Numbered from the stretch's first letter, positions 8,734 to 36,297 are shown. The stretch: DNA of 44,943 nt from Betaproteobacteria bacterium (GCA_016192835.1 JACPTJ010000236.1:1-44943), one strand, 5' to 3'. Notes: generated by a model not told the origin, from the letters alone. A program made the numbers and translations.

Positions 8734-10106
8734 CACTCACTTCAAGCCTGATCGAGACTTGCCGCAGCAAGCTGCCGGCGCAGGTGAACGATGACGCCAT
8801 CGCGGCTGCCCGGCGCTGCCTGCTCGACAGCCTCGCGGCCGCATACGCGGCGTATGGCGAAGCACCGATAGAGATGCTTCGCGGTGAGACGACGGAAGGC
8901 AGCGCGAAGGGCGAAGCGAGCGTCATTGGCTATGGCGACCGCGTCCGCCCGAGCGACGCCGCACTCGTGAACGGCACGATGATCAGCGTGCAGCTCTTCG
9001 ATGACAATCAGGAGCAGATGCGCGGACACCCGTCGGCGCCGTTGTGGCCGGCGGTGCTGGCGCTCGCCGAAGCGCGCGATGTTTCGTTGCACGAGGCGCT
9101 GCGCATCTTCGTCATCGGCTACGAAGTCGAATGCAGGCTTGGCCTGGTGCTCAATCCGTCGCATTACGAAATCGGCTGGCACGCGACTGCAACGCAGGGC
9201 CTCGTCGCGGCGACCGTGGCGTCGAGCCTGCTGCTCGAGCTCGACGAGACGCGCATGTCGCACGCTCTGGGCATCGCGGCTTCGATGGCGAGCGGCATCC
9301 GGCGCAATTTTGGGACCATGACGATGTCGTTCCACAGCGGGCTTGCAGCGAGCAACGGCGTGCGCGCTGCGCGGCTCGCGGCGCGCGGCTTCATCGCCGA
9401 TCCGCAAATCTTCGACGGCGCCATGAGTTTCGGCGCCGTCTTTTCTCGCGAGTGGTCGCCGGACGCGCTGGCTGAGAATCTCAAAGCGTGGGGTGCGCCG
9501 TTTATGATCGTGTCGCCAGGTCCGACTTTCAAGCTGTACCCGTGCGGCCGGCCCACGCTCTTCGGTGTGGATTGCGTCGTCGAGCTTCAACGCAAGCATC
9601 AGGTGAAACCAGCGGACGTGCGCCGCATCACGTGCGATGTGAGTTACATGTACCCGCGCACCCTGATCCACTCCCGCCCGTCGAATGGACTGCAGGGCAA
9701 GACGTCGCTCGAATATTGCGTCGCGACGACGTTGCTGGATGGCCGTCCGACGCTGGCCTCGTTTACCGATAAGGCAGTGCGCCGCGCCGAAATCACGCGA
9801 CTTATCGGCATCACCGAAGTGCGCGTGCCGCCCGAGCTGTCCGAAAACGTGCCGGAAGTGCGCAAGGCGCCATTCGAGCAGCCGGTGACCGTCACGATCG
9901 AGACGAGCGATGGCCGTGTCTTTTCGGAAACGGTGCGTCACCAGAAAGGCTCGCCCTGGAACCCTGCAAGCGATTCCGGCTTGCGGCAGAAATTCGTCGA
10001 CTGCGCGCTGCCGCACCTTCCGCGCGAGTGCGTCGATGCGGTTCTGGAGTGCATCGGCCGCGACGTGAAAACACGCGAGCTCACGAAGCTCCTGAAGGTC
10101 AGCTAA
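8730..10106 (+). CDS. MmgE/PrpD family protein, paralog 1
   Basis: 458 aa. The ATG overlaps the upstream stop (ATGA). The N-terminal DDAIAAARRCLLDSLAAAYAA and the central GWHATATQG and GIAASMASG blocks are typical of MmgE/PrpD. Confidence 0.85.
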   Translation: MTLTSSLIETCRSKLPAQVNDDAIAAARRCLLDSLAAAYAAYGEAPIEMLRGETTEGSAKGEASVIGYGDRVRPSDAALVNGTMISVQLFDDNQEQMRGHPSAPLWPAVLALAEARDVSLHEALRIFVIGYEVECRLGLVLNPSHYEIGWHATATQGLVAATVASSLLLELDETRMSHALGIAASMASGIRRNFGTMTMSFHSGLAASNGVRAARLAARGFIADPQIFDGAMSFGAVFSREWSPDALAENLKAWGAPFMIVSPGPTFKLYPCGRPTLFGVDCVVELQRKHQVKPADVRRITCDVSYMYPRTLIHSRPSNGLQGKTSLEYCVATTLLDGRPTLASFTDKAVRRAEITRLIGITEVRVPPELSENVPEVRKAPFEQPVTVTIETSDGRVFSETVRHQKGSPWNPASDSGLRQKFVDCALPHLPRECVDAVLECIGRDVKTRELTKLLKVS

Positions 10107-20043: not shown

Positions 20044-21021
20044 ATGAATTTATCTTTTTCCCGTTTGGTGTTGGTGGCGCTCGCCCTTGCTTGCCTTTCA
20101 ATGGCGACCACCTTTTCCTTGGCCGCTTACCCGGAACGGCCAATTCGGCTGCTCGTCGGGTATCCGCCCGGAGGGGGCGCCGACTTTACTTCTCGTTTGA
20201 TAGGCGCAGAACTCAGCAAAGAATTGGGTATGCAGGTAGTGGTGGACAATAGACCTGGCGCCGAGGGCTCTCTGGCCGCGCATATTGTGGCCCGTGCCGC
20301 CCCTGATGGTTACACGTTGCTGCTGATCCCCTTCAACCTGGCTTTGAGCCCGAGTCTGAAGAAGAACCTGCCATACGATCCTCTTAAGGATTTTGAATTC
20401 ATCACGTTGATGGCATCGGCGCCCATGGCACTAACTGTCAATCCGTCTTTGCCAGTCAAATCCGTTGCCGATCTCGTGAATCTAGCGAAGACCCGCCCGG
20501 GCGGCGTCAATTACGGCTCCAGCGGAACTGGCGGGACCTCTCACGTGTCGGCAGAGTTGTTTAGGTCTCTAGCCAAGATCAACCTCGTTCACGTCCCTTA
20601 TCGCGGCTCGGGCCCGGCGTTGCTGGCAACCATTAGCGGCGAGGTGAATATGTGCTTTGGAAGTCTGCCGCCGATTCTGACGCACATGAAGACGGGGGCG
20701 CTGCGAGTGCTGGGCGTAACCACGAGCAAGCGCGCAAAAGTGGCTCCGGATGTTCCCACGATCAGCGAAAGCGGCGTGCCGGGATACGAATTCTCGACTT
20801 GGTATGGGCTGGGTGCCCCGGCAAAGACCCCGCGCTCGATTCGGCTCATGTTACACGCGGAGATTGCCAAGGTCCTCACCATGAGTCATGTCCAGGCACG
20901 GCTTCTCAATGACGGGGCGGAACCCATTGGCAGCGGTCCGGACGAGTTTCAGAAATATTTCGCGGCTGAAGTCAACAAGTGGAAGGCCGTAGTCAAAAAC
21001 GCGGGAATAACTCCCGAATAA
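20044..21021 (+). CDS. Bug/TctC family substrate-binding protein
   Basis: It has a signal peptide, then YPERPIRLLVGYPPGGGADFTSRL, YGSSGTGGTSHV and the C-terminal AAEVNKWKAVVKNAG. Confidence 0.9.
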   Translation: MNLSFSRLVLVALALACLSMATTFSLAAYPERPIRLLVGYPPGGGADFTSRLIGAELSKELGMQVVVDNRPGAEGSLAAHIVARAAPDGYTLLLIPFNLALSPSLKKNLPYDPLKDFEFITLMASAPMALTVNPSLPVKSVADLVNLAKTRPGGVNYGSSGTGGTSHVSAELFRSLAKINLVHVPYRGSGPALLATISGEVNMCFGSLPPILTHMKTGALRVLGVTTSKRAKVAPDVPTISESGVPGYEFSTWYGLGAPAKTPRSIRLMLHAEIAKVLTMSHVQARLLNDGAEPIGSGPDEFQKYFAAEVNKWKAVVKNAGITPE

Positions 21022-21032
21022 AGAGAACATCA

Positions 21033-22889
21033 ATGGAAAAGCACCTCTACCTGGTAGGAGATGTCAGTTTTTGCGGATTCGATGACGCTAACACGCCCCT
21101 TGCTCTTGCTGCGCCGATTCTGAATAAGGCGGACGTGTTGTTTGGGAACCTGGAATGTGTCCTGTCCGCGCCTCCCGCTTTCCCCGGCATGATGATGTGC
21201 GAGGAGCCGGTGCCTCCCGGCGCTGGCGCCGAAACCAAGCTCGGTGGCAGAAAGCGAATGGGCGGCTGGGACTCTCGCTATAGTTTTCTCGACCAGGACG
21301 GGTTGTACGCCGATCCATCGCTAGGCGAGGGGCTGGTGCTGGGCGGGTTCGATGCCGTCGGATGCGCAAACAACCAGACGTATGGACCGGACCAGATAAT
21401 AAAGTCCTTGGCGAAATTGGATGCCCTCGGCATAAAGCACACCGGAGCCGGCCTAAACCGCGAAAAGGCGCGCGAACCCGCCATAGTGTGCAAGTCTGGT
21501 ATCAGCGTGGGTTTTCTTCAATACACGTCCGTATACTGGCCGAGCAATCATGAAGCTGGTCTGAACTATCCGGGCGTGGCGGTCATAAGGGGCTATACGT
21601 CGTTTCAACCAAACATTGAATACCCGATCGGCAACCGTCCGGGTGTCCCGCCGATAATTCATACGTGGGCGGACAAGCACCACCTCGAGTTCATGCAAAA
21701 GGACATCAGAAAACTGCGAACGCAGGTCGACATCCTGGTTTCCTCCCACCACTGGGGTTTTCTCGACGAGGTGTTTGCGTACCAAGAGGATATTGCCCAC
21801 GCCGCGATCGACGCCGGAGCTGATATTGTTATCGGGCACGGCCCCCATCAGCCGCTGGCGATCGAAGTGTACCGCGGTCGTCCGGTGTTTTACGGATTGG
21901 GGAATTTCTCGTTCAAAACCCGGCATTGGCGCAGCAACAAGGGCGCCATAGACGCGGGCGTATCGGGCAAGGATTCCTGGGTGGGAATGCTCGTTGACGT
22001 GACCATCGAAGACGGAAAGGTCAATAAAGTTTCATATCGGCTTGCAAAACATAACGAACGGTTCCAGACGTTGATCAGGGACCCTGGGGATGAGCCCGAG
22101 CTGATGGTAAGAATTACTTACCGGAGGATCCGCATGGACCTTCAACTCGGCAACCGCACTGCGCTCGTGACCGGCGCAAGCCGCGGCCTCGGACGCGCCA
22201 TCGCTTTCAAACTCGCCGGCGAAGGTGTCAAGACGGCAATCGTCGCGCGGCGCGGCGAGTTGCTGCGCGAGCTCGCTGCCGAAATTACATCCGCCGGCGC
22301 GCCGCCGCCGGCAATCATCGAAGCGGACCTTTCTGCGCTTGGCGCTCCTGAACAGATCACTGCCCGGGCACAGCAGGATCTCGGGCGCATCGATATGCTC
22401 GTCAACGCGGCGGGCGGCAGCCGCTCGATTCCATTCGAAGCCACGACAGAACAATGGATGGAAGGCATGACGATTAATTTTTTTCGCCTGCGCGAGCTGA
22501 CGCATGCCGTGGTGCCGGGCATGATCGCGAACCGTTGGGGGCGCATCATCAACATCACGGGGAGTTCGGAGCCGCGCGGCCTCAACGCCGCCAATTCCGC
22601 AAAAGCCGCGGCACACGTATGGGCGAAGGCTTTGTCGCGCGAAATCGCGAAACATGGCGTGACGGTCAATTGCATCAAGCCCGGCCGCATCATGAGCGAA
22701 CAGATTCTGCGCATGTACCCGACAGAAGAAAGCCGCCGCGATTTCGCCGCGCGTGAAATCCCCACGGGATGCTTTGGCAAAGCGGAAGAACTGGCGGTGC
22801 TCGCGGTATTTCTGTGTTCGCCGCTCGCAGGTTATATCACCGGAACAGTAATACCGGTTGACGGCGGTATGAGCAGGTTCGCGTTTTAA
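21033..22889 (+). CDS. CapA/PGA_cap-like metallophosphatase domain fused in frame to a short-chain dehydrogenase/reductase domain
   Basis: This is one uninterrupted frame of 618 aa. The N-terminal ~365 aa carry CapA-like blocks (GNLE, CANNQ, SHHWG, GHGPH). The C-terminal ~250 aa form an SDR (TGASRGLGRAIA, NAAG). Confidence 0.75.
   Translation: MEKHLYLVGDVSFCGFDDANTPLALAAPILNKADVLFGNLECVLSAPPAFPGMMMCEEPVPPGAGAETKLGGRKRMGGWDSRYSFLDQDGLYADPSLGEGLVLGGFDAVGCANNQTYGPDQIIKSLAKLDALGIKHTGAGLNREKAREPAIVCKSGISVGFLQYTSVYWPSNHEAGLNYPGVAVIRGYTSFQPNIEYPIGNRPGVPPIIHTWADKHHLEFMQKDIRKLRTQVDILVSSHHWGFLDEVFAYQEDIAHAAIDAGADIVIGHGPHQPLAIEVYRGRPVFYGLGNFSFKTRHWRSNKGAIDAGVSGKDSWVGMLVDVTIEDGKVNKVSYRLAKHNERFQTLIRDPGDEPELMVRITYRRIRMDLQLGNRTALVTGASRGLGRAIAFKLAGEGVKTAIVARRGELLRELAAEITSAGAPPPAIIEADLSALGAPEQITARAQQDLGRIDMLVNAAGGSRSIPFEATTEQWMEGMTINFFRLRELTHAVVPGMIANRWGRIINITGSSEPRGLNAANSAKAAAHVWAKALSREIAKHGVTVNCIKPGRIMSEQILRMYPTEESRRDFAAREIPTGCFGKAEELAVLAVFLCSPLAGYITGTVIPVDGGMSRFAF
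22123..22128 (+). promoter_or_regulatory. Internal Shine-Dalgarno GGAGGA, 5 nt upstream of ATG 22134 (start of the SDR domain)
   Basis: The sequence is ccGGAGGAtccgcATGgac. A perfect SD sits at the domain junction inside the fused ORF. Confidence 0.5.
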
Positions 22890-24231: not shown

Positions 24232-26337
24232 CTAGCGACCCAGCACCACTGCGTCCAGTGCCCAGGCACCGGCGCCGGTGAATCCCAGCCCCAGAGGGTT
24301 GATCTCCATTTCGACCAAAGAGTCACCCAGGCTCAGCGCAAGCCGGCTCAGACGGCAGATCACGTCCGCCGCGGCTGACAGATCCGCCGCGGGGCGCCCT
24401 CGAAATCCGGACAGAAGCGGGTAGCCCTGCAGTTCGCGCAGCATCTCCGTTGCTTCGTCGTGGGACAGGGGCGCAGGCCGAATAGCGAAATCCCGCAGCA
24501 CTTCGGCATAGATGCCACCCATGCCGACCAACACCACCGGCCCGAACTCCGGACTGTTCCGCACTCCCACAATCAGTTCCGCAACCGTGGGAACCATCCG
24601 CTCAACTACAACCCCTTGCACGGCTCCTTCGGGTAAGACGGCGCGCGTGCGGTCCGTCACCGCGCGGAATGCCGCCACTACCGCGTCGCGATCCGCGAGA
24701 CCGAGGGCAACGGCTCCCAGATCTGATTTGTGGTTAAGTCCCGTGGCCACCACCTTCACGGCCACCGGGTAGCCAACCCCATCCGCCACCGCTACAGCCT
24801 CCACCTCATCCCTGGCCAGACCCCCGGCAGGAGCGGGAATGCCCGCGACTGTCAGCAACGCCTTACCCTCGGGCTCAGTCAGGGCGGGCCCTGGAACCGA
24901 CAATCGGCGAATGAGGTCGTGCGGTATATGAATGGGTGGCAAAGGCGCAATTTCGGGTGCCCCCGTGGCATCGGGGCGGGAGAACACGCCCCGCATGGCT
25001 TGCGCCAGGGCTCCAGCCGAATCGAAAACCGGCACGCCCTGATCCCGCAACGGTTGGAGGTACTTGCGGGCCATGCCGTCAACGGTGTATACCGCCAGCG
25101 GCTTGTGCAACTCGCGGCAAATCTCCTGAATGACCGCCTGCTGGAGTGGCGACCGGGCAGCACTATTGGAGAGAACCACCACCATCGCTCCGACGCCCGG
25201 GTCGTTGGCCACGGCTGTCAGTGCGCCGCGGAACACAGACACATCACCTAGACCGGCGGTGGTGAGATCGAGGGGATTCTGGGCGCTTCCCCAAGCGGGG
25301 AGCAGCCCGCGCAGCAGGTCTGTGGTCTCCGGGGCAAAGGACGCCATACTTACACCCACCTCTTCCAACAAGTCGGTCACCAGAATGGCACCGCCGCCGG
25401 AGTGAGAAACCACTGCTACGCCGCTATTCGCAACACCGGAGCCGGTTCGGGATAAAACCTGGGCTGTCTCGACCAAATTGTCAAGATCGTCCACCAGTAC
25501 GACGCCAAGGCGCTGGGTCACTGCCAGAAAGGCCTGCTCATCACCCAGAATGCTCCCCGTGTGCGAGGCTGCCGCCCGCCGGCCGTTGCCAGAGCGGCCC
25601 AGCCGGCAAAGCACCACAGGAACCTTCCGCTCAGCTGCCTGCCGACAAACGGCAATAAACGATCGCGGCTGTTTAAGTCCCTCAATCACAGCGCACAGCG
25701 CCCGTACTTCCGGGTCTTGAAGCATCCATCCGAAGTACTCGCTCAGATCAATGTCAGCCTCGTTGCCACTGGCAACGGCGTATCGAAAGGCAATGCCCCG
25801 GTCGGCACCGCGGGAAAGACATGCGCTGCAAAGTGCTCCGCTCTGGGAGACCAAGCCGATGTGTCCCGCGGGAAGCGGCCATTCCATGGGGGCAGATGAT
25901 GCCGTCAGCATGATGCGATCTCTCGTATTGACTATCCCCAGGCAGTTAGGGCCGGCGATACGAACGCCTAGCTTCCGCGCCAGCGCCACCAGGTCCGCTT
26001 GGCGCCGGACGCCCTCCGATCCCGCTTCAGCAAAACCGGAGCTATAGACAATGGCTGCCTTGGCGCCCCGGCTCGCGCAGGCCTCGAGTGTGCCCAGAAC
26101 CTCGGCAGCCGGAACCGCCAGGTAGGCTGCATCGATCTGCCCGGGAATCGCTGTCACCGCAGGCCAGCACCGGACGTCGGCAATCTCCGTTGCAGTAGGG
26201 TTTACGGGATATATATTCCCTGGGTAGCCATGCCGCAGCAGGTTGGATAACGGGCGCCCCGTTACCTTGTCCAAGTTGGCCGAAGCCCCGACGATGGCTA
26301 CTGCCCTTGGTCGAAATAGTGGGTCCAGCAAATGCAT
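24232..26337 (-). CDS. ADP-forming acyl-CoA synthetase (acetate--CoA ligase family; fused CoA-binding, ligase-CoA and ATP-grasp domains)
   Basis: It has the PRAVAIVGAS CoA-binding N-terminus, the AASHTGSILG phosphohistidine loop and a C-terminal ATP-grasp region (GYPVAVKVV...). The start is ATG 26337 (MHLLDPLF). Confidence 0.85.
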   Translation of the reverse strand: MHLLDPLFRPRAVAIVGASANLDKVTGRPLSNLLRHGYPGNIYPVNPTATEIADVRCWPAVTAIPGQIDAAYLAVPAAEVLGTLEACASRGAKAAIVYSSGFAEAGSEGVRRQADLVALARKLGVRIAGPNCLGIVNTRDRIMLTASSAPMEWPLPAGHIGLVSQSGALCSACLSRGADRGIAFRYAVASGNEADIDLSEYFGWMLQDPEVRALCAVIEGLKQPRSFIAVCRQAAERKVPVVLCRLGRSGNGRRAAASHTGSILGDEQAFLAVTQRLGVVLVDDLDNLVETAQVLSRTGSGVANSGVAVVSHSGGGAILVTDLLEEVGVSMASFAPETTDLLRGLLPAWGSAQNPLDLTTAGLGDVSVFRGALTAVANDPGVGAMVVVLSNSAARSPLQQAVIQEICRELHKPLAVYTVDGMARKYLQPLRDQGVPVFDSAGALAQAMRGVFSRPDATGAPEIAPLPPIHIPHDLIRRLSVPGPALTEPEGKALLTVAGIPAPAGGLARDEVEAVAVADGVGYPVAVKVVATGLNHKSDLGAVALGLADRDAVVAAFRAVTDRTRAVLPEGAVQGVVVERMVPTVAELIVGVRNSPEFGPVVLVGMGGIYAEVLRDFAIRPAPLSHDEATEMLRELQGYPLLSGFRGRPAADLSAAADVICRLSRLALSLGDSLVEMEINPLGLGFTGAGAWALDAVVLGR

Positions 26338-26402
26338 GTCGCCGGATCTCCCGGTAATTTTTGTGCCACCACCACCGGGCCGGCGCATGGACTGCGCCTA
26401 GC

Positions 26403-27857
26403 CTAGTTAAGCCTGGCGCCCGCTCCCAAGGGAAGCCCCTTGCTGAGGGCGTAGATATCGGCGATGGTCATGTTATAGGAAGGTTTCCGCCCCTCCAGTT
26501 CACCTCTCCGGGCCACTTGCTCCTGGTGATACTCCCACACCGTGGCCGGGAGCGGGATATTTCCCGGATCCAAGTAGCGGAATGCTCCTGACCAATCTCG
26601 AACGGGCATGACCCGAGCCCGATTGTGCTGGTTGGGGGAGAACGGAATGTCAATGACGCCCGCCTTGAAGGCGGCAACCACCCCCCGCGCGAGATCGCCT
26701 TCGCCCAGTTCCAGCACCCGGTTCATCACGGCACGTACCTCACAGCGCAGCATCTCCGTTTCCGTCCGCAACTGCTCTGTTTCCGGGAAAGCCGAACATG
26801 CGGCATACTCCAGCATGGTGCGTGTCGCAACACATCCCTGAACGTTGGCCTCCCGGGTCGGCACGCCGAAGGCTTCGTCGGGTGTCTTGACGATGGTCAT
26901 GCTGGCCCCACCCCAGGCAGCGACTGCCGCCCCGGCACAAATGATGCTGTAGGCTTTGGCCTCATCCTCGGGAAAGCCGCCCATCCACTGGTGTAGCGAA
27001 GTTGTCACCACAGCGTTGGTGTACCGGAGACGGGCGGCGTACTCCTCGCCCATCTCCCGCATCACCCGCAGCGCGGCAATGTCCTGGTACAAAGACCCGT
27101 TCTGACCGTAGGCCAGCAGACAGTGGTTCGCACCTTGACCCATTTGCAAAAGCCCATCAATAACGGTGACTACAATCTGAAGGCCGGGCGGAACCACCGA
27201 ACACAGGGGAATGTAATGCTCACGACTTACAGGGCAGCCGTTGTCTTCGTAGTAGCCCGCCAAGCGATCAACGTACTGCCAGTTGTAAATGATCTCTTCC
27301 ATTGAAGTATCTTTGGAATAAGCCAGATCACCCATCGCGCCGTGCGAGTGCCCCGTGTACCCCGCTGCCAGCATGATTTCGGCACCCAGGCGAAAGTCTG
27401 GCGTGGCCGTACGCACAATGAGAGGGCGTTCCAGGGCCTCTACCACCTGTCGGCACCCTTTCACCCCGTAACTGACCGACGGAAAACCGTTAAGCATGGA
27501 ACGGCCACGCTCCAGGCTTTCCTTGCGGGCAGCTTCAGCTTCGGCAAACTTCCGGTTTCGGGTGTAGCTATCAATGGTAGATGGCAACAGGTCTGCGCTC
27601 CCGTGGTCCTGCAGAAACCGCAGCAACTCAATCTGCTCTTCTATCAAAGCGACGCCGGCACGGGGCTGGATCAGCACGCGTCCAGCCGCCCTGGCCCCGG
27701 CCAGTGCGTGAGCAGCGTTGCGCCCGGCCGGAAGTCCCCGGTGATAAGCCAGGGCCTCCTCCAAGTCCACTCCCCGGCCGGTGGGCCACTGCGCCAACAC
27801 AGCCTGGCGCTCGGCCATGAAATAGTCCAGATCCCACTTACGCTGCAAGATCTCCAT
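26403..27857 (-). CDS. Glutamate mutase E (epsilon) subunit-like protein, paralog A (closer to canonical GlmE)
   Basis: 484 aa. AAAGGAGG lies 9 nt upstream of ATG 27857. Blocks shared with GlmE are WPTG, QPRAGVAL, LPSTIDSYTR, LNGFP, VKGCR, HQWMGGFPEDEAKAY, IVKTPDEAFGVPTREAN and MPVRD. Confidence 0.85.
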   Translation of the reverse strand: MEILQRKWDLDYFMAERQAVLAQWPTGRGVDLEEALAYHRGLPAGRNAAHALAGARAAGRVLIQPRAGVALIEEQIELLRFLQDHGSADLLPSTIDSYTRNRKFAEAEAARKESLERGRSMLNGFPSVSYGVKGCRQVVEALERPLIVRTATPDFRLGAEIMLAAGYTGHSHGAMGDLAYSKDTSMEEIIYNWQYVDRLAGYYEDNGCPVSREHYIPLCSVVPPGLQIVVTVIDGLLQMGQGANHCLLAYGQNGSLYQDIAALRVMREMGEEYAARLRYTNAVVTTSLHQWMGGFPEDEAKAYSIICAGAAVAAWGGASMTIVKTPDEAFGVPTREANVQGCVATRTMLEYAACSAFPETEQLRTETEMLRCEVRAVMNRVLELGEGDLARGVVAAFKAGVIDIPFSPNQHNRARVMPVRDWSGAFRYLDPGNIPLPATVWEYHQEQVARRGELEGRKPSYNMTIADIYALSKGLPLGAGARLN

Positions 27858-27917
27858 CCCCCGCAACCTCCTTTGAGTACAGACCCCTTACCAGGGTAGT
27901 ACGTAAGTAACTAACTG

Positions 27918-29411
27918 CTAACGGCCAATCAACCGGCCTTCGGAGGCAGCAACGACGTCTGCCTGGGTCAGATCGAAGTCCAGGGGCTTGCCGGACAGGC
28001 GGGACCGGATTTCCAGCTGGCTCTGGTGGAATTTCACAGCTTCGGCCGGCAGGGGCAGATTGCCATGATCCAGGAACCGGATGGCCCCTTTCGCATCCCG
28101 GGCGGGCATCACCTTATTGGCAATGGGTAGCCAGCAGGAGAACGGGCAGTCCAGTACCCCGCTCTCAAACGCCTTGGCGGCGCCCACCACCACGTCACCG
28201 TCGCCCAGCTCGATGACCCGGTTCACAATGGCGCGTGTTTCAATCTCGATGTAGTGCATTTCCTCAGCGAGTTCGGGGGAGTCGGGAAATTTCTGGTTGC
28301 AGAGCATGGTGATTACGGCCTTCGTTGCGCGCAAGGCCTGTGCGTTGGCCTGGGCCGTCGGCAGGCCCGTGGCCTCCTGAACCGACTTCACGATGACCTG
28401 GGTGGCTCCCCCAAGAACGGCCGCCATGGAATTCCAGCAGATCAGTGCGTAGCTCCGAGCCGGGTCGTGGGGAAAGGCCCCTGTCCACTGGTAGAACGTG
28501 GTGGATACCGTCACATCCGCAAAGTCAAACCGTGCCATGTACTCGCCGGCCAGCCGTTTCAACACCCGGACACCTGCTACATCCTGGATCAGATTCCCGG
28601 TGGCGGTATACCCGGGGCTGACGAACTTGATTCCCTGGGCAGCCTGAATCAGACTGTCAATAATGATATAGGACAGGCAGATGCTGGGGGGAATGAGCGT
28701 GCCTGACAGGCCGCCGTACACTTCATGGTTGATCGGCCAACCGTGCTCCGTGTACCAGGCGCCCAGCCGGGCAACGTATTGCCAATTGCGAATCGAGTCG
28801 GCCAGCGCTACATTCTTGTGATGTGATGTCGGCATGATGATGCCGCCGCAGGGCACATCGGAGAAGCCGGAAGCCCAGGCGACCTCCATCACAAGACGGG
28901 AGTCTGCGGCGCCGGACCGCACGACAAGCGGGCGATCGACAGCCTCACGCACGCGCCGGCAACCCTGGATACCGTAGTTGGCGACCGGAAAGCCGTTGAT
29001 CATGTTGCTCCCCTCGCGCCGGCTCTCCTCGATGCCCAGTTCAGCCATTTGATAGTTATTCTCACGGGTATGGGTGTCAAGGTTGGTGGGCAGGGCATCG
29101 GCCTGTCCATCGTTTTGCACTTCCAGCAACACCTTGATCCATTCGTCAATGAGGGCGATGCCTGCTCTAGCAGCCTGTTTACGCGGTAAGTCCGACAGGC
29201 TGCCAGGCTGCATTACGGTCCGGCCCTCGGTCAGCGCCTGCTTTAGCACCCAGGCCTGATTCTGATGGGGTGGCAGCGTGCGCAAATAGGCGACGGCCTC
29301 GTCCAGGTGAACCTCCCGGCCAGTGGGCCACGTACCCAAGACTTCCCGCCGCATTGCCTGGAACTCTTCGTCCGACCAACGGTGCATTCTTAGGTCTGGC
29401 TGATCTTTCAT
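27918..29411 (-). CDS. Glutamate mutase E subunit-like protein, paralog B (divergent, with an insertion)
   Basis: 497 aa, collinear with GlmE: WPTG, QP[12-aa insert]RAGIAL, THTRE, INGFP, IQGCR, YQWTGAFPHDPARSY, IVKSVQEATGLPTAQAN and MPARD. The ATG overlaps the glmL stop (ATGA). Confidence 0.8.
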   Translation of the reverse strand: MKDQPDLRMHRWSDEEFQAMRREVLGTWPTGREVHLDEAVAYLRTLPPHQNQAWVLKQALTEGRTVMQPGSLSDLPRKQAARAGIALIDEWIKVLLEVQNDGQADALPTNLDTHTRENNYQMAELGIEESRREGSNMINGFPVANYGIQGCRRVREAVDRPLVVRSGAADSRLVMEVAWASGFSDVPCGGIIMPTSHHKNVALADSIRNWQYVARLGAWYTEHGWPINHEVYGGLSGTLIPPSICLSYIIIDSLIQAAQGIKFVSPGYTATGNLIQDVAGVRVLKRLAGEYMARFDFADVTVSTTFYQWTGAFPHDPARSYALICWNSMAAVLGGATQVIVKSVQEATGLPTAQANAQALRATKAVITMLCNQKFPDSPELAEEMHYIEIETRAIVNRVIELGDGDVVVGAAKAFESGVLDCPFSCWLPIANKVMPARDAKGAIRFLDHGNLPLPAEAVKFHQSQLEIRSRLSGKPLDFDLTQADVVAASEGRLIGR

Positions 29412-30802
29412 ATCTCCTCTAGATTCTCTCTAAGGACCGTGTACGCAACGTCCGGAAAGCGTTCAGCCAGGAGACCCATTCCGTACAGGATGTAGCGCCG
29501 GTCGATCCAGTACTGGGGATGCACGGGTTTGAGCTTCATCGGGTCTCCATGCGTGACCGACTCCAGCACCGCCTTGTATCCTTTGCCGTACGCAAAGATA
29601 CCGCCCGTTCCGACTACGGGCTTCAACTGCCGAAGGTCCTTGCCATACTGAACGAAGGTTTTCCCTTGCGCGGTCCACACTTCTTCCAGCATACCGCAAT
29701 GCCGATCGGTGGCGACAGCCACGGCCACTGCTGCCAAGGCCCTGTCAATGGCAAACTCCTGATCGGAGTCCGGCGTGGTGGCGGTATGGCGGACCCGGCG
29801 CTCCACGGCCAGCGCCAGCTCTTCGGGTGGCAGCGAAATGTCCTTGAACAGCCCGTAAGCTCTCCCGACCTCCAGAATGGTCTGGGCGTTGATGCGCAGG
29901 CCCAAGTCGCCTTCAACGGTACGCTTGACCCGTGGTTCCGGCAGGCCCTTGAGCGCGACTCCAGGCGTAGTCGGCGTCCCGACGGCTACGGTGTGAACGT
30001 CGGTGGTGGCGCCCCCCACATCCACCACCATGGTCTCGCCCAGTCCGCTTGCTCCGGGCGGACCGTCCGCCAACAGTTGGGTGGCCCGCAACACCGCCAT
30101 GGGGGTTGGCATGATGATGTCCTCAACCAGCTCGCGAGCCCGGTCTAACCCCTTGGCGTGAACGATGCGTTCAATAAACAGCTGGCGAATAAGGTCGCGG
30201 GCTGGTTCCACGTTCAAGCGATCCAATTCCGACAGCACATTCTCGGTCAGCCGGGCATCAATGCCGGCGGCGAGCAGAAGATCTACCGCTTCCGGACCTA
30301 CACTCTTGTTCCCCGCTACCACCACGGGAGTCTGCAGACCGGCCGCGGCCATGCTGCGCGCGTTTGACAATATCGTATCGGTATCGCCGCCGTCCGTCCC
30401 GCCCGCCAACAGGATCACGTCCGGGGCCAGGTTTTTCAACTCCGCGATTTCCGTCCGGCTCATCTTATAACCGAAGGCCTTGATCACCTTGGCGCCGGCC
30501 CCCAGCGCTGCCCGGCGCGCCGCCTCAACCGTGAGGGAGGGTACCAGACCCACCGCGACCATGCGCAGTCCGCCGGCAGCACTGCTGCATCCCAGCATAA
30601 GGGCCGCGGAGGGGATATCGATGCCCTGACCGCTTAATCGCCCAAGCGCCTGATGCAGCCCGATCGTAACGTCGGAATCAACTGTTGACGGGGCCTGGGC
30701 CGTGCCCAAGAGCCGGCGCCCGGCAAGGTCCACCGCAATGACTTTGGTAAAGGTGCTGCCGAAATCCACCAGGACCGCCAGCTTCACTTTGCTGGTGCTC
30801 AA
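29408..30802 (-). CDS. glmL: Glutamate mutase accessory protein GlmL/MutL-like (ASKHA-fold chaperone/reactivase)
   Basis: 464 aa with LVDFGSTFTKV, LLAGGTDGGD and VVDVGGATTDVH ATPase motifs. The TTG start at 30802 overlaps the glmS stop (TTGA). GTG 30787 is an alternative start. Confidence 0.8.
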   Translation of the reverse strand: MSTSKVKLAVLVDFGSTFTKVIAVDLAGRRLLGTAQAPSTVDSDVTIGLHQALGRLSGQGIDIPSAALMLGCSSAAGGLRMVAVGLVPSLTVEAARRAALGAGAKVIKAFGYKMSRTEIAELKNLAPDVILLAGGTDGGDTDTILSNARSMAAAGLQTPVVVAGNKSVGPEAVDLLLAAGIDARLTENVLSELDRLNVEPARDLIRQLFIERIVHAKGLDRARELVEDIIMPTPMAVLRATQLLADGPPGASGLGETMVVDVGGATTDVHTVAVGTPTTPGVALKGLPEPRVKRTVEGDLGLRINAQTILEVGRAYGLFKDISLPPEELALAVERRVRHTATTPDSDQEFAIDRALAAVAVAVATDRHCGMLEEVWTAQGKTFVQYGKDLRQLKPVVGTGGIFAYGKGYKAVLESVTHGDPMKLKPVHPQYWIDRRYILYGMGLLAERFPDVAYTVLRENLEEI

Positions 30803-31212
30803 ATGCGGAGGTCGGCGCGCAAATCCCGAATGACCTGGTCAGGCATGGTACCGGGGGGATATGCACGGTCAAATCCCATGTTCAGGAACGTTCTTTCCAC
30901 CAGTTCCCAATCCTGCCTGCCCACCATCAGGTTGCCTCCGCAATACATCAGAATGTCGTGCAAACCGGCTTCGCGGCATTTGTCCCGGAAACCCCGGCAG
31001 TCAATCTCGCCATGCCCGTACAGGGAAGACACCAGGATGGCGCGTGCGGCCGTCTCTTGAACTGCATGGATGAAGTCTGCCTGGGATACGAAGATTCCCA
31101 GGGTCACCACGTTGAACCCGGCCTCGCGCAGAGCATAGGCCAGGATTGAGTTGCCAATGATGTGCACGTCGGCTCCGAGAACCCCGGTAACGATCGATAT
31201 CTGTTCTCTCAT
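30799..31212 (-). CDS. glmS: Glutamate mutase S (sigma) subunit-like B12-binding protein
   Basis: 137 aa from ATG 31212. It has GADVHIIGN (DxHxxG base-off/His-on motif), VSSLYGHGEIDC (SxL) and YCGGNL (GG). It is collinear with clostridial MutS/GlmS. Confidence 0.85.
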   Translation of the reverse strand: MREQISIVTGVLGADVHIIGNSILAYALREAGFNVVTLGIFVSQADFIHAVQETAARAILVSSLYGHGEIDCRGFRDKCREAGLHDILMYCGGNLMVGRQDWELVERTFLNMGFDRAYPPGTMPDQVIRDLRADLRI

Positions 31213-31630
31213 GGGTGGACCACTGCATACGCTTCCTGCCATTCAACCTGAATTTCCTGAAAATCCACAGTATCGATTTCCCTTGAAAACAAGCAGAAGC
31301 CCAATCGAGGCTCATCCATCGCCGCCTCCAGCCGTCGATTATCGCTTTGCGCTTCACAATCCCATCTTGCTGGGCGCGCTTTCCAAAAAATTATTTTCCG
31401 TCGTCAACTGGCCGACGATGGGGTCAGCGCTGGTTCCTCTTGGCGCGTCAGGTCGAATACAAGTACCCTAAGCTGCCTCCCCGCTTTTCCTGAAGATTCT
31501 AGTTCGGCGGGTTGCCAACCGTCAATGGAACGAAATCGCCGGTAGTGGGTCAGTCAGAGCGGCCCAATGCCATGTAACATAGAAAATATCCGGGCCGCGC
31601 GCATCATTCGCCAACCGGAAAGGAAACCCA

Positions 31631-33151
31631 ATGGTGGGACACCGCATACGAGTCTACAAAAGCGCAGAGACCCCGCCTCGTTCCGAGTTGCTCGCCTGGA
31701 AGATCGCTGTCGTCGCTGCTGATGAGGCAGCTGTCGATCCGGACGTCGCCGCGATGATCATCAATCGCATCATCGATAACGCCGGTGTCGCGGTTGCGGG
31801 CCTGGCGCGCCATCCGGTTGCGAACGCCCGTGCGCAAGCGCTTGCGCATCCGCATGGGGGCGGAGCAACAGTCTTCGGCATGCCTCGCACCGAGCGCGTT
31901 GCCTGTGAATGGGCTGCGTGGGCGAACGCTTCGGCAGTCAGGGAGCTTGATTTCCACGACACCTTCCTCGCCATGGACATGAATCATCCGGGTGACATGA
32001 TCCCCGCCATCGTCGCGGTCGGTCAGCAGTGTGGGGCGAATGGACGAGACCTCGTCCGCGGCATTGCGACCGCGTACGAGATTGATGTGTGCCTGGCGAA
32101 GAGCATCTGCCTTCACGAGCATCGGATAGACCATTTGCCGCACATCGCGGCCGGGATGGTTGCCGGAATCGGTACGATGCTGAGACTGCCAGTCGAGGTG
32201 ATTTACCAAGCGGTGAACCACATCGTGCACGTCACGATAACCACCCGGCAATCGCGTAAGGGCGAGATTTCGACGTGGAAAGCGCACGCTCCCGCCCACG
32301 CCGCGAAGCTTGCGGTCGAGGCTGTGGACCGGGCGATGCGAGGCGAGACTTCGCCCTCGCCAATTTACGAGGGCGACGACAGTATCATCGCCTGGCTGCT
32401 GGATGGTCCCGGTGCCGAATATACGGTGCCCCTGCCGGAGCCGGGTGAGCCGAAGCGCGGTATCCTCGAGACTTACACGAAAGCCTATTCCGCGGAAATT
32501 CACTCACAAGCGCTGATCGATCTCGCGTTCCGCATGCGCTCACGTATCGCTGACTTGTCAAGGATCGCACAGATCGTGATCCATGCGAGCCGCTACACGC
32601 ATCGCATCATTGGGACCGGATCAGGCGATCCTCAGAAATTCGATCCGGGAGCGACTCGGGAAACACTCGATCATAGCGTCATGTATATTTTTGCGGTCGC
32701 TCTCGAGGACGGCGTATGGCACCACATCGACAGTTACCTGCCGACACGTGCTGCCCGTTTGTCGACGGTTCGGCTTTGGAAACGCATTCGGACAATTGAG
32801 GATCCCGAGTGGACACGCCGCTATCATGCTCAAGAGCCGAGCCAGAGGGCGCTGGGCGCGAAGGTCGTGGTAACCATGGAAGACGGCACCAAAATCGAAG
32901 ACGAGATTGCGTTTGCGGATGCACACTCATATGGCGCCAAGCCTTTCAGGCGGGATGACTACATCGGCAAGTTCCACGCGCTCGCTTCGGACTGCGCCGA
33001 AAGCACAGAACGTGAACGGTTTCTGGCGGCGGCGCTTGCGGCGCCCACAATGCCGTCGGGAGCACTGCAGGAGCTCACGGTTGAAGTGCCGCCCGACGCG
33101 CGCAGATGCGAAGGTCTGCGCCCGGGACTATTTGAGCGGTCCGCGGATTGA
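31631..33151 (+). CDS. prpD: 2-methylcitrate dehydratase-like (PrpD subfamily of MmgE/PrpD), paralog 3
   Basis: 506 aa. AAGGAAA lies upstream of the ATG. RELDFHDTFLAMDMNHPGD, YSAEIHSQALIDLA and TLDHSVMYIFAVAL parallel E. coli PrpD blocks (from memory). Confidence 0.8.
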   Translation: MVGHRIRVYKSAETPPRSELLAWKIAVVAADEAAVDPDVAAMIINRIIDNAGVAVAGLARHPVANARAQALAHPHGGGATVFGMPRTERVACEWAAWANASAVRELDFHDTFLAMDMNHPGDMIPAIVAVGQQCGANGRDLVRGIATAYEIDVCLAKSICLHEHRIDHLPHIAAGMVAGIGTMLRLPVEVIYQAVNHIVHVTITTRQSRKGEISTWKAHAPAHAAKLAVEAVDRAMRGETSPSPIYEGDDSIIAWLLDGPGAEYTVPLPEPGEPKRGILETYTKAYSAEIHSQALIDLAFRMRSRIADLSRIAQIVIHASRYTHRIIGTGSGDPQKFDPGATRETLDHSVMYIFAVALEDGVWHHIDSYLPTRAARLSTVRLWKRIRTIEDPEWTRRYHAQEPSQRALGAKVVVTMEDGTKIEDEIAFADAHSYGAKPFRRDDYIGKFHALASDCAESTERERFLAAALAAPTMPSGALQELTVEVPPDARRCEGLRPGLFERSAD

Positions 33152-33233
33152 GTCGATAAAGGAGAAAGCAACATGAGTCAAGGGCGGCCGGAAACGTGCC
33201 TTCCGAAAGACGGTGATCTTCAAGGGGAAGAAG

Positions 33234-34397
33234 ATGGGAGCGGAAATGGCGGAAGAATTTCGCATGATTCAGGATCTCGTTGCCAAGTTTGTCGACAACG
33301 AACTCATGCCATTGGAACCCGCCGTATTGGCGCGGGAGATCAAGGGGGAGAAGCTCGCCCTGACGAAGGAGGAGGAGGGGCCCCTCCTGAGGAAATGCAA
33401 GGAGCTGGGTCTCTGGGGTCTGGATGCGCCGCCAGAGCTCGGCGGCATGAACCTTCCGGCAACCGTCTGGATGGCCATCAACGAGGAGTTGGGTCGTACG
33501 GTGACGCCGTTTGTCTTTCCCCCGGATTCACCCAATCTGCATATGCTGCTCGCAACGGTAGACGACAACCAGCGACGAAAGTACCTCGAACCCTACGCGA
33601 GAGGTGATGCGACAGGTGCGATTGCGATCTCCGAGCCCGGCGCTGGAGGAGATCCGGCGGGCATGACGACTCGCGCCGAAAAGGATGACGGCGGCTGGGT
33701 CATCAACGGTCGAAAGATCTGGATCAGCCGTGTCGCCGCCGCCGATTTCACTATCGTGATGGCGCGCATCGGCTCGGGCAAGCGACACGAAGGTATCACC
33801 GCATTCATCGTGGAGAAGGGGACGCCCGGATTCGAGATCGTCCGCGAGATCCCGATGCTGGCCGGTCACCGGACGTATGAGGTCGTGTTCGAGAATTGCC
33901 GTGTTCCGGAAGCCCAGCTTCTGGGTCGCGTGGGTGCCGGTTTCGCACCGATGCAGCTTCGCCTGGTCGTGCGGCGGCTACAGATCGGGGCATGGTGCCT
34001 GGGGATGTCGCGCCGCGCCTTGGACATGATGTGCTCGCACGCGAAACTGCGAGTGACCTTCGGTGTGCCGCTTGCCGATCGCCAGGCCATCCAATGGTGG
34101 ATCGCGGACGCCGCAACCAAGATGCACGCCTGCCGCCTGATGTTGCTCGATGCGGCGACAAAGCAGGAACAAAAGCAGGACGTCCGGACCGAGGCCTCGA
34201 TGATCAAGGTCTATGCCACGGAGATGGCGACCGAAATCATCGATCATGCGATGCAAACCCTGGGAGCGATGGGCGTCACCAAAGAGTTGCCGTTGCATCT
34301 GATGGCTCAGAAGGTCCGCGTCATGCGCGTATACGAAGGGCCGACCGAAATCCACCGGATGGTGATAGCGCGCAGCGTACTGAAGGGCGCGCGTTGA
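33234..34397 (+). CDS. Acyl-CoA dehydrogenase
   Basis: It has AISEPGAGGDPAGM, WISRVAAADF and the C-terminal YEGPTEIHRMVIARSVL (catalytic Glu of the YEG motif). The start is ATG 33234, with GTG 33213 possible. Confidence 0.85.
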   Translation: MGAEMAEEFRMIQDLVAKFVDNELMPLEPAVLAREIKGEKLALTKEEEGPLLRKCKELGLWGLDAPPELGGMNLPATVWMAINEELGRTVTPFVFPPDSPNLHMLLATVDDNQRRKYLEPYARGDATGAIAISEPGAGGDPAGMTTRAEKDDGGWVINGRKIWISRVAAADFTIVMARIGSGKRHEGITAFIVEKGTPGFEIVREIPMLAGHRTYEVVFENCRVPEAQLLGRVGAGFAPMQLRLVVRRLQIGAWCLGMSRRALDMMCSHAKLRVTFGVPLADRQAIQWWIADAATKMHACRLMLLDAATKQEQKQDVRTEASMIKVYATEMATEIIDHAMQTLGAMGVTKELPLHLMAQKVRVMRVYEGPTEIHRMVIARSVLKGAR

Positions 34398-34599
34398 TTG
34401 CGTTCGCGCCATTTTGATGTAACCGGCATTGCCAATCGGCCGAGCGCAGGCGTAACATGCTTCCCGGCGCAATGCTCGGCAGCGCTGAATCAGCGCCAAA
34501 CCGTCGCCATCGGCCAGACGCGCGAAAAGAGCAGGATTGAATTCATCCGCAATTTTTGCGCCCGCCAATCTCGAATCGCCACTACCAAAGGGAGTTGGA

Positions 34600-36280
34600 A
34601 TGCCTGCTGTCAATAACGATGGATACTACGAAGTGTTCTGGCCGCGCAGTCCGCGGCAAGCTAATCTGAAGCCGGTTGCGAAACGGCTCGATACCCTGGA
34701 AGGCAAGACGGTTGCACAGCTTTGGGATTTTCTGTTCCGGGGCGACGAAGTGTTCGCACTGTTGGAAGAAGGTCTGAGAGCGCGCTATCCTGGCGTGCGT
34801 TTCGTAAGCTGGCGCGATTTCGGCAACACCCATGGTCGCGATGAACGGGAAGTACTCGCCCGGTTGCCGCAGCGCTTGAAGGAACTGGGGGTTGACGCCG
34901 TTATCTGCGGGATGGCGTGTTGAGGGAGCTGCACGCCCGCCGTGTTGCGGGCGAGTGCAGTCTGCGAGGAAGCCGGCTACCCGACGTCATCGCTCACGTG
35001 CGAAGGTTTTCTGCGGCAGGCGGTCGCGATATCCGTCGGCCTCGGCATGCCGAATATTCCGGTTGCGTTGGTACCGGGCCACGTTGGCACGCAGAGCAAG
35101 GACGAGCTACGGCGCAATATACTTGAGGTCACCGCCGAAAGGGTCATCGAGAACCTGACCCGCACGCTGGCGGCGGGCAGCGGTAACGCGGAGCCCGGAG
35201 CACGCGACATCATCTTCAAAGGCGGCTTCAAGGCGGTGAACCGCCACTTCTATGAGAAGGAGTTGAGCGACGGGCTGCCTGTCGTTCCCCCGACGCAGGA
35301 GGATGTCGAGGCCTTCCTGCGCTTCACCGACCGCGACTCCAACGAGGTGCTGGGCACCATCCTTCCCGACCAACGCGCGGCGACGATCTGGAGCATCGCG
35401 GTAAACGGTGTCATGGCCGGATGCCGCCCGGAATACATGCCGATTCTGGTCGCACTCGTCGAAGCGATGGCCGATCCCGCCTACGGCGTCGAGCACAGCG
35501 GCAATACCCCCGGGAGTGATACGCTCATTATCCTGAACGGACCCATCATCGGGCAACTGGGCTTTAACTACACGCAAGGCGCGTTGCGTGACGGATTCAT
35601 GCCGAACACTTCGATCGGGCGGTTCTGGCGGCTTTACCTGCGCAATGTAGCCGGCTTCCTGCCACGCAAGAACGACAAGGCGACTTTCGGCAATACCTGG
35701 CGGGTGGTGCTCGCGGAGAATGAAGACGTTCTGAAGAAGATCGGCTGGGAACCCAACAGCGTCGAAATGGGATTTAGCGCGGGCGAGAATACGGTGACCA
35801 TCGGGCGCTACACGGGAGGCGGCTCGTTTTCTTCCGTTTCGGGGAGTACGCCGGAGCAGATGCTGCCTTATCTTGTCGATTCGGTGCTCAAGTACCACAC
35901 GTGGCAACTCTTGTTCACTGTGAGCGTCGGCAGCGGGTCGCTACGCCCCCTGCTGGTGATAACCCCGCTCATCGCCGAGACCATTGCGAAAGCGGGGTGG
36001 TCGAAGGCGGACGTGAAGCGCTATCTCTATGAACATGCACGATTGCCGGCATGGGAGTTCGAGCGTTATCTGCGCGACTGGACTATCAGGGGTGTGTGGA
36101 ACCTCGAGGAGGAGGTACGGTTGGGGCGCATGCCTAAGATTGCGCAACAATGCGTATGTGTTTGCGCACAACGGCTTTCTCGGCTATCCGGTGGGCAAGC
36201 GCATCGAACTGCCGCGGGATTGGCAACAGAAACTGGCCGCTCTCGAGTCCTGACGCCAAGACTGTTGTTGGCGCCAGAGG

Positions 36281-36297
<17 letters not shown>
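34600..36297 (+). CDS. UGSC-type selenoprotein (GrdB-like U-x-x-C domain) fused to a ~370-aa uncharacterised domain. It contains in-frame UGA=Sec, and its 3' end is probably frameshifted.
   Basis: ORFs 34537..34923 and 34942..36297 share one frame and are separated only by TGA plus 6 sense codons. Read-through gives ...VDAVICGMAC-U-GSCTPAVL.... GGGAG lies 5 nt upstream of ATG 34600. The conserved C-terminus (KRIELPRDW) sits in the +1 frame ending at 36253. Confidence 0.7.
34921..34923 (+). other. In-frame UGA proposed to encode selenocysteine (the U of C-U-G-S-C)
   Basis: The same frame continues on both sides. The codon sits in a U-x-x-C redox-type motif, and a hairpin starts 5 nt downstream. 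Confidence 0.7.
34929..34960 (+). promoter_or_regulatory. SECIS-like recoding hairpin
   Basis: CTGCACGCCCGC (34929-34940) pairs with GCGGGC (34947-34952) and GTGCAG (34955-34960). That is 12 Watson-Crick pairs with a 2-nt GA bulge and a CGUGUU loop, with loop G/U 19-22 nt after the UGA. Confidence 0.65.

Follow-up and report, generated by a model that had tools for sequence, protein, structure and literature searches.

A glutamate mutase-like operon with paired E-subunit paralogs and a probable substrate other than glutamate

A 44,943-nucleotide stretch of DNA from a Betaproteobacteria bacterium (GCA_016192835.1, JACPTJ010000236.1:1-44943), referred to here in its full length as the window, carries on its minus strand an operon of the glutamate mutase type, in which the genes for the S subunit and a GlmL chaperone are followed by two divergent E-subunit genes, B (epsilon') and A (epsilon). 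On balance we favour a reading in which this operon would encode a GlmSE-type adenosylcobalamin (AdoCbl) carbon-skeleton mutase for a non-amino C5-type dicarboxylate, with A as the constant catalytic subunit, B as its obligate partner, and a product that is activated with coenzyme A (CoA) and oxidised. A substrate other than glutamate is well supported by the observations described below, and an epsilon/epsilon' heteromer is plausible.

Two E-subunit paralogs in one operon

A sequence-only reading of this locus had proposed a minus-strand S-GlmL-B-A operon with two divergent E paralogs, and the open reading frames (ORFs) bear this out. The operon and the two genes that follow it comprise:

31242..30799, minus strand: S (sigma) subunit, 147 residues; PF02310; NF002612 (GlmS) 193 bits, cut-off 110
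30802..29408, minus strand: GlmL/MutL-type ASKHA accessory (reactivating chaperone) protein L, 464 residues; PF13941 526 bits; NF040745 553 bits, cut-off 475
29411..27918, minus strand: E paralog B (epsilon'), 497 residues; PF06368; TIGR01503 508 bits, cut-off 390
27866..26403, minus strand: E paralog A (epsilon), 487 residues; PF06368; TIGR01503 528 bits, cut-off 390
26388..24232, minus strand: ADP-forming (NDP-forming, fused alpha-beta) acyl-CoA synthetase (ACS), 14 nt downstream of A; PF13380, PF13607, PF13549
24022..22994, minus strand: TctC/Bug-family periplasmic carboxylate-binding protein (tripartite tricarboxylate transporter receptor), last gene of the strand; PF03401 243 bits

The translation of S contains the motifs ascribed to it earlier, DxHxxG as GADVHIIG, SxL as SSL and GG as GGN, within a B12-binding Rossmann domain. 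The coupling proposed for the first three genes is likewise present at both junctions: the TTG start of L lies within the stop of S (CGC ATT TGA, a TTGA overlap), and L and B share an ATGA overlap (ATA TGA AAG). B and A are separated by 51 nt, and the true start of A is likely to be the ATG at 27857 behind AAGGAGG, which would give a protein of 484 residues.

Both E proteins are named methylaspartate mutase subunit E in the NCBI annotation. They are 39% identical to each other, and 46% (A) and 43-44% (B) identical to GlmE of Clostridium cochlearium, the only member of the family with solved structures. HMMER matches to chain 1CB7_B have E values of 1.5e-143 for A and 8e-129 for B. The AlphaFold2 (AF2) single-chain models are confident (mean predicted local distance difference test score, pLDDT, 93.9 for A and 92.9 for B) and superpose on GlmE chains 1CB7_B/6H9E_B with template modelling (TM) scores of 0.96/0.97 for A and 0.94/0.97 for B and a root-mean-square deviation of 1.4-1.5 Å.

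Active-site replacements in A and B

Active-site residues were mapped by HMMER alignment to C. cochlearium GlmE (1CCW/1CB7) and by MAFFT alignments, and are given in GlmE numbering. In glutamate mutase the glycyl part of the substrate is bound by Arg66, Arg149 and Glu171, the acrylate part by Arg100 and Tyr177 (PMC10947579). All three arginines are retained in A and in B, in agreement with the sequence-only reading. That reading had also judged the catalytic glutamate to be missing, and alignment finds Glu171 in neither paralog: the position is occupied by Ser in A (TGHSHGAMG-DLAY) and by Pro in B (SDVPCGGIIMPTSHH). At position 177 the Tyr is missing by deletion from A and replaced by Met in B, while position 181 is Tyr in A and His in B. 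The signature formed by positions 66/100/149/150/171/177/181, R-R-R-H-E-Y-Y in every one of 133 canonical GlmE sequences, reads R R R T S - Y in A and R R R S P M H in B. Lys326 and Glu330, which we take to be the residues holding the 5'-deoxyadenosyl ribose, are kept in A, in B and in E2, the partner gene of distant relatives described below.

The replacements recur within each class. In the A class (10 sequences, down to 55% identity) position 171 is Ser or Thr, His172, Asp178, His215, Tyr216 and Cys220 are constant, and positions 177 and 221 are deleted; the B class has constant Pro171, Cys172, Pro178, Thr179, Ser180 and His181, and its Met177 is class-conserved too. The class-specific changes are concentrated in segments 147-158, 171-181 and 213-229. 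By these alignments the active-site replacements are class-conserved and not random. Since both paralogs have lost the Glu171 and Tyr177 that are invariant in the 133 canonical enzymes, each in a manner conserved within its class, an altered substrate specificity is indicated, and the retained three-arginine claw would favour a free dicarboxylate over a CoA ester.

Conserved pairing of the E genes

Relatives of A that carry the A motif are few (P0001-4 at 75-98% identity and P0005-8 at 55-58%), the next sequences being ordinary GlmE at about 50%, and relatives of B are equally rare (P0121-4 and P0127). Locus contexts were retrieved through exact matches to the proteins and through a search of metagenomes for the A-specific motif REHYIPLCxVxPP. 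A second E gene lies upstream of A in all 13 of the A-class loci that include upstream sequence, which represent about 10 lineages at 56-99% identity. The order S-L-B-A-ACS, often followed by TctC, is found in the window and in L006-9, L010, L011, L014, L016-18 and L024 (A 74-99% identical), and L012 has the order S-L-S'-B-A, where S' is a second S-like gene. The distant lineage (A 56-58% identical; L001, L002 and L025) has the order S-L-DctP(QM)-E2-A, with a transporter of the tripartite ATP-independent periplasmic (TRAP) type. E2 forms a separate non-canonical class with the signature RRRASFY and is 41% identical to B; orthology of B and E2 was considered and is unsupported by this identity and by a neighbour-joining tree, despite a shared loss of Asp198/Arg213 (see below). 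In L001 a 288-residue ORF with no Pfam match (9091-9957, plus strand) lies between E2 and A; it is absent from L002 and L025.

Neither an A-, nor a B-, nor an E2-class gene was found alone in any locus with enough flanking sequence. Three other non-canonical GlmE classes that were checked have a single E gene each, so that the tandem is a property of the A class and not of the family. The pairing first noticed in the window is kept across lineages down to 56% identity, together with genes for carboxylate uptake and CoA activation and never with deamination genes.

Constraint on A and B, and the character of B

Pairwise comparison with relatives (dS 0.05-1.9) gives ratios of nonsynonymous to synonymous substitution rates (dN/dS) of 0.08-0.14 for A and 0.10-0.26 for B, alongside 0.05-0.19 for S, 0.15-0.19 for L and 0.17-0.21 for ACS. 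By this measure A and B are both under purifying selection, and neither is decaying in the window lineage; the possibility, raised by the sequence-only reading, that one paralog is a decaying duplicate finds no counterpart in B there, whose values resemble those of S, L and ACS. B is nevertheless less constrained than A on these comparisons. Across the family, 69 columns show at least 97% conservation; A follows them without exception in every lineage, B deviates at 2-5 of them, the B of L024 at 11 and E2 at one.

B of the window lineage is further marked by an insertion:

29169..29204, minus strand: 36-nt in-frame insertion in B (GSLSDLPRKQAA), 12 residues directly before Arg66, window lineage only

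The insertion is present in the window and in P0121 and absent from P0122 and P0123; judged by length, L010, L016 and L017 have it as well. The AF2 model renders it as a low-confidence floppy loop (pLDDT 58-77, below 50 at residues 78-81).

A second peculiarity concerns Asp198/Arg213, a pair that 235 of 246 homologs (at least about 40% identical) keep unchanged. The pair is lost in the B class (Ala/His) and in the E2 class (Ala/Gly), the only other case among the 246 being one Arg-to-Lys change; in the window B the replacements are D198A, within WQYVARL, and R213H, within INHE. Positions 198 and 213 co-vary in distant family representatives.

Two loci show unusual arrangements around B. In L024, B (963-2444) has among its 11 deviations Arg66 to Gly and a dN about three times that of A (2513-3967); A, ACS and the acyl-CoA dehydrogenase (ACAD) gene look intact, and about 200 bp lie between L and B in place of the ATGA overlap. 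An assembly error in P0124/L024 was considered and rejected, A, ACS and the C terminus of L on the same contig being clean, and we read the L024 gene as a lineage-specific relaxation of B. In L012, S' (3328-3780, minus strand) lies between L and B and shares 55% identity with S; in the place of DxHxxG it has DDMPVVG, with the cobalt-ligand His changed to Pro. Taken together, the deviations of B at invariant columns, the insertion, the loss of Arg66 in L024, the loss of Asp198/Arg213 and the His-less S' hint that the upstream E serves as a partner whose own site is modified or silent.

Methylaspartase and metabolic context

In canonical loci of the genome collection (controls L003-L005) a methylaspartate ammonia-lyase (MAL) gene directly follows glmE; L004, for example, has the order S-L-E followed by a MAL of PF07476/PF05034. 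A tblastn search with the L004 MAL found none in the 44.9-kb window (best E value 1.4, over 18 residues) and no match in the A-class loci (about 10 related loci), and recovered the orthologs in L003 and L005. Pfam scans of the large ORFs of the window also gave no methylaspartase. The earlier statement that the operon has no methylaspartase gene therefore holds for the window and extends to its relatives.

What stays together is a module of mutase, CoA activation and carboxylate-binding protein. ACS follows A in L006, L010, L012, L013, L016, L017 and L024. TctC orthologs follow ACS in L013 (99% identity) and L017 (90%), and a TctC paralog does so in L024. An ACAD gene lies in the divergent unit of the window (33213..34397, listed below), and its 93%-identical ortholog accompanies the operon in L024, where the genes are arranged differently; this ACAD is the probable downstream enzyme of the mutase pathway. 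L006-L008 have a non-orthologous ACAD and an enoyl-CoA hydratase (ECH) directly upstream of S. A PrpD-like gene is linked only in near-identical relatives (L010 and L016) and is absent from L006-L008 and L024. The TRAP-type loci have as neighbours a family-III CoA-transferase, a SucCD-like ligase, a 403-residue double-hotdog MaoC hydratase, a short-chain dehydrogenase/reductase (SDR) and a GntR regulator; the CoA-transferase is matched best, though far below cut-off in both cases, by the models for succinate-glutarate and succinyl-CoA:mesaconate transferases. In the loci compared, the genes conserved near the operon include no aminotransferase, ammonia-lyase or amino-acid dehydrogenase.

The neighbours were also tried as guides to the substrate. 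The linked ACADs are generic short-chain types and not glutaryl-CoA dehydrogenase-like; the MaoC protein has no relative in the PDB, and the CoA-transferase is loosely C4/C5-dicarboxylate-like. None of these proteins, the PrpD-like protein included, singles out one substrate.

Proposed reaction

The S subunit would provide a base-off/His-on B12-binding scaffold served by the GlmL reactivase, with a TIM-barrel E component made from the two co-encoded paralogs. The three-arginine claw would grip the two carboxylates of the substrate and the Lys/Glu pair the adenosyl ribose. A free non-amino C5-type dicarboxylate, imported by the TctC system (elsewhere by the TRAP system), would undergo a 1,2-shift of a carbon fragment through Co-C homolysis, hydrogen abstraction, rearrangement and hydrogen return. 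The isomer would then pass to the adjacent ADP-forming acyl-CoA synthetase and to the acyl-CoA dehydrogenase, for a beta-oxidation-like breakdown. The B12 dependence of this enzyme, its heteromeric composition, the order of the steps and the substrate are inferred.

Three candidate reactions can be proposed. The preferred one would convert 2-hydroxy- or 2-oxoglutarate to 3-methylmalate or 3-methyloxaloacetate; the others would be the interconversion of glutarate and methylsuccinate and that of 2-methyleneglutarate and methylitaconate. The His, Asp and Tyr residues gained in A would be compatible with a substituent of hydroxyl, oxo or carboxyl type, or with acid-catalysed migration of a carbonyl or carboxyl group, and glutamate mutase itself slowly converts L-2-hydroxyglutarate to 3-methylmalate. 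The recurrent linkage to ACAD would instead suit a saturated product, glutarate or methylsuccinate.

Within this scheme catalysis probably falls to A, the constant subunit, and B most likely pairs with it in an epsilon-epsilon' heterodimer, its own site being modified or non-catalytic. It is possible, and we put it forward tentatively, that the enzyme is the first heteromeric epsilon-epsilon'-sigma member of the glutamate mutase family, with a free non-amino dicarboxylic acid as the substrate of a new EC 5.4.99 reaction, one E carrying out the chemistry and the other being an obligate, partly degenerate partner.

Alternative explanations

Several observations weigh against the reading of a heteromeric mutase for a non-amino acid. 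The proposal of a non-glutamate substrate, already made from the sequence, stands as far as it draws on the absence of Glu171 and of methylaspartase and on the carboxylate and CoA context, whereas the non-amino nature of that substrate is its more tentative part: Asp178, newly invariant in the A class, belongs to the loop of position 171 and could stand in for Glu171 as amine ligand, which would make an amino-dicarboxylate substrate possible. A methylaspartase could also be encoded outside the contigs. The ACADs of different lineages are not orthologous (27% identity), are of generic short-chain type and are absent from the TRAP-type loci, so that the downstream chemistry is not uniform. The neighbour-joining tree used for class relations is crude, and all members come from metagenomes or metagenome-assembled genomes, with no cultured carrier found in the collections searched. 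Finally, B keeps the arginine claw and Lys326/Glu330 and is well conserved, and may be a fully active second enzyme in place of a partner.

This last point leads to the most serious alternative, in which A and B would be independent homodimeric enzymes (A2S2 and B2S2, or S paired with A and S with B) that share one S and GlmL and act on two stereoisomers of one acid, on two related acids or in two consecutive 1,2-shifts of one pathway. Two enzymes sharing one S fit the gene data almost as well as a heteromer does, since both paralogs combine an intact claw and adenosyl-binding pair with purifying selection, their pockets are strongly unlike each other, and E2, with its single deviation among 69 invariant columns, looks fully competent. 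The two S genes of L012 and the ORF that separates E2 from A in L001 point the same way. That the A, B and E2 classes never occur alone where flanks suffice nevertheless speaks for interdependence against independent enzymes, as do the missing cobalt-ligand His in the second S of L012, the tolerance of B, in two lineages, for an insertion at Arg66 and for the loss of Arg66, and the Asp198/Arg213 loss that sets the partner classes apart from any stand-alone E among the close homologs. We regard two mutases as a serious but rather unlikely account. Far less probable is that B is a functionless duplicate in the course of degeneration and that only S, L and A matter. Its deviations at family-invariant positions, the 12-residue insertion beside Arg66 and the L024 copy, which has lost Arg66 and evolves about three times faster than A, would be expected of such a gene; a dN/dS of 0.10-0.26 over dS values up to 1.6, a frame intact in all lineages, ATGA translational coupling to L, a confident AF2 model and the retention of an E' gene upstream of A in every lineage, 56%-diverged ones included, are hard to reconcile with it. 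An ordinary glutamate mutase with a duplicated E is scarcely more probable. It would act on L-glutamate (or 3-methylaspartate), with Asp178 or another residue in the role of Glu171 and the methylaspartase encoded elsewhere. Both E proteins, S and L indeed score above the NCBIfam equivalog cut-offs for methylaspartate mutase and both E proteins carry its name at NCBI, and the claw is intact and Asp178 conserved in the A class; set against this are the absence of the Glu171 and Tyr177 that 133 canonical enzymes never vary, the lack of MAL in 44.9 kb and in about 10 related loci, while it is adjacent in the controls, and neighbours that are a CoA ligase, an ACAD and a carboxylate transporter, not mesaconase or citramalate lyase. 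The heteromeric mutase with a non-amino dicarboxylate substrate remains the reading we prefer.

Place in the GlmE family

An HMMER search of 1.84 billion cluster representatives at 50% identity returned 248 clusters at E<1e-30, and a census was taken of the best 150. Among these 150 of 248 clusters, 125 representatives have at least 440 residues; the canonical signature is present in 37 of the 125, and Lys326/Glu330 is almost universal. No A-class member is among the 50%-cluster representatives, the best match being 46%. The rarity of Glu171 loss implied by the sequence-only reading does not survive this census, since about two thirds of the sampled clusters are non-canonical; what is rarer is the obligate pairing of E genes. 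Among the representatives, many of those with about 640 residues are probably S-E fusions, judged by length and match position. On this sampling GlmE-like enzymes beyond the canonical signature are numerous, and the window system is one rare branch of them.

Among the family sequences P0143-P0237 and P0238-P0386, one of the single-E classes, which we call 'RRL[SA]LYY', comprises about 80 sequences of about 477 residues with Arg149 replaced by Leu, His150 by Ser or Ala and Glu171 by Leu. In locus L019 (6174-9434) a member lies between fumarase/succinate-dehydrogenase-like genes and a TctCBA set with an enolase-superfamily gene.

Scanned with A, the genome collection yielded canonical Clostridiales GlmE alone, at 46% identity, and the A class was absent from its cultured and species-representative genomes; a tblastn search of the plasmid collection likewise found no A-class member. 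A two-place match in the plasmid collection, in Roseibium, proved to be an S-E fusion linked to a non-ribosomal peptide synthetase, irrelevant to tandem E genes.

Other features of the window

Divergent from the operon, beyond a 388-bp intergenic region with a promoter candidate, lies a plus-strand unit:

31496..31525, minus strand: sigma-70-like promoter candidate upstream of S in the divergent intergenic region, TTGACG-18-TAGAAT, 10/12, by consensus match only
31631..33151, plus strand: MmgE/PrpD-family protein, divergent from the operon; PF03972, PF19305; NF042438 754 bits, under the cut-off of 950
33213..34397, plus strand: short-chain-type acyl-CoA dehydrogenase (ACAD) of the divergent unit; four ACAD Pfam domains

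An Rfam scan of the window found no cobalamin riboswitch and no other RNA family.

Next to the PrpD-like and ACAD genes, the region 34537-36297 (plus strand) begins with an ORF (34537-34923) that ends ICGMAC at an in-frame TGA (34921-34923); GGG AGC TGC (G-S-C) follows, and the frame runs into the ORF 34942-36297. Both halves match PF24696 'UGSC', over profile positions 1-91 and 102-171. A GC-rich hairpin starts 8 nt after the TGA, though with a fold z-score of only -0.58, and L010 and L016 have the same TGA and an identical hairpin. The region is a probable selenoprotein gene, likely to encode one protein of about 586 residues with U-G-S-C that annotation has split in two.

The window as a whole (1-44943) is dense in carboxylate-catabolism cassettes, with at least eight TctC/Bug paralogs, three genes of the phosphoenolpyruvate (PEP)-mutase/isocitrate-lyase family, three MmgE/PrpD genes, two AtuA-like genes, hydantoinase A/B, a TcuA-like flavoprotein and an IclR regulator. 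The window ORFs that were scanned include no gene for the TctA/TctB membrane components. A 636-residue ORF at 20979-22889 (plus strand) combines a PGA_cap (CapA-like) domain at residues 111-313 with a complete SDR at residues 394-632, which begins from an internal 'MDLQLGNRTALVTGAS'; this is a fusion, or else two genes that share a reading frame with no intervening stop.

Significance

AdoCbl carbon-skeleton mutases are, to our knowledge, a handful, and free acids are the substrates of only two of them. If the operon encodes a third such enzyme, with a new substrate, it would add a radical reaction to the enzymatic repertoire and a new bacterial route for branched or substituted dicarboxylates, of relevance to organic acids in groundwater and soil and to pathway engineering, for which glutamate mutase is already in use. 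Obligate pairing of two E paralogs, if true, would be a new architecture for the family and a natural experiment in the re-tuning of a radical active site, and the system would give access to a broad and so far uncharted diversity of GlmE-like proteins, all now named 'methylaspartate mutase' in databases. Because both genes of the window pass the NCBI equivalog threshold and about two thirds of the sampled 50%-identity clusters are without the canonical signature, 'glutamate mutase' annotations are probably over-propagated, which would affect the predictions of B12 dependency and of pathways that rest on them. In the literature searched (subscription journals lay outside its coverage) there is no account of tandem GlmE paralogs, of a heteromeric glutamate mutase, of GlmE-like enzymes on other substrates or of related fitness data, and a random-barcode transposon sequencing (RB-TnSeq) paper on dicarboxylates lists no mutase.

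Comparison with known systems

Besides glutamate mutase, the 2-methyleneglutarate mutase of Eubacterium barkeri (EC 5.4.99.4) is the one AdoCbl mutase known to us that has a free dicarboxylic acid as substrate. It resembles the system proposed for the window in catalysing an AdoCbl-dependent 1,2-shift on a non-amino C5-type dicarboxylate with a MutL/GlmL-like protein alongside. It is a single-polypeptide homo-oligomer without a PDB entry, and its nicotinate-pathway neighbours, methylitaconate isomerase and dimethylmalate lyase, are not part of the conserved module of the window system.

A precedent for the proposed division of labour between A (catalytic) and B (partner) is the heterodimeric methylmalonyl-CoA mutase of Propionibacterium shermanii (alpha-beta; PDB 1REQ), which has two paralogous large subunits, one of them catalytically silent; only alpha binds AdoCbl. 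That enzyme belongs to another family (about 12-15% identity, TM score about 0.5), acts on CoA thioesters and has its B12 domain fused to the large subunit, and the silent subunit established there is only hinted at for B.

Closer at hand, the 'RRL[SA]LYY' class and loci of the P0142/P0233 type are also PF06368 proteins encoded with S and L, non-canonical at positions 149, 150 and 171, without methylaspartase and with carboxylate-uptake and CoA neighbours. The window system differs from these single-E classes in its obligate E'/E tandem and in the retention of all three arginines.

The nearest characterized relative is glutamate mutase (GlmS/GlmE with GlmL, EC 5.4.99.1) of C. cochlearium and C. 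tetanomorphum (PDB 1CCW, 1CB7, 1I9C and 6H9E), whose genes belong to the same families and stand in the same order S, L, E. The fold (TM 0.94-0.97 at 43-46% identity), the DxHxxG motif of S, Arg66/100/149 and Lys326/Glu330 are shared. The window system, however, has two E genes in place of the single one of the epsilon2-sigma2 enzyme, has Glu171/Tyr177 replaced in both and Tyr181 in B, and lacks an adjacent methylaspartate ammonia-lyase, being linked to ACS, ACAD and TctC and not to the mesaconate pathway. As judged from its genes, it departs from glutamate mutase in three defining features, Glu171/Tyr177, the single E gene and the coupling to methylaspartase, while the scaffold is the same and the radical chemistry presumably so.

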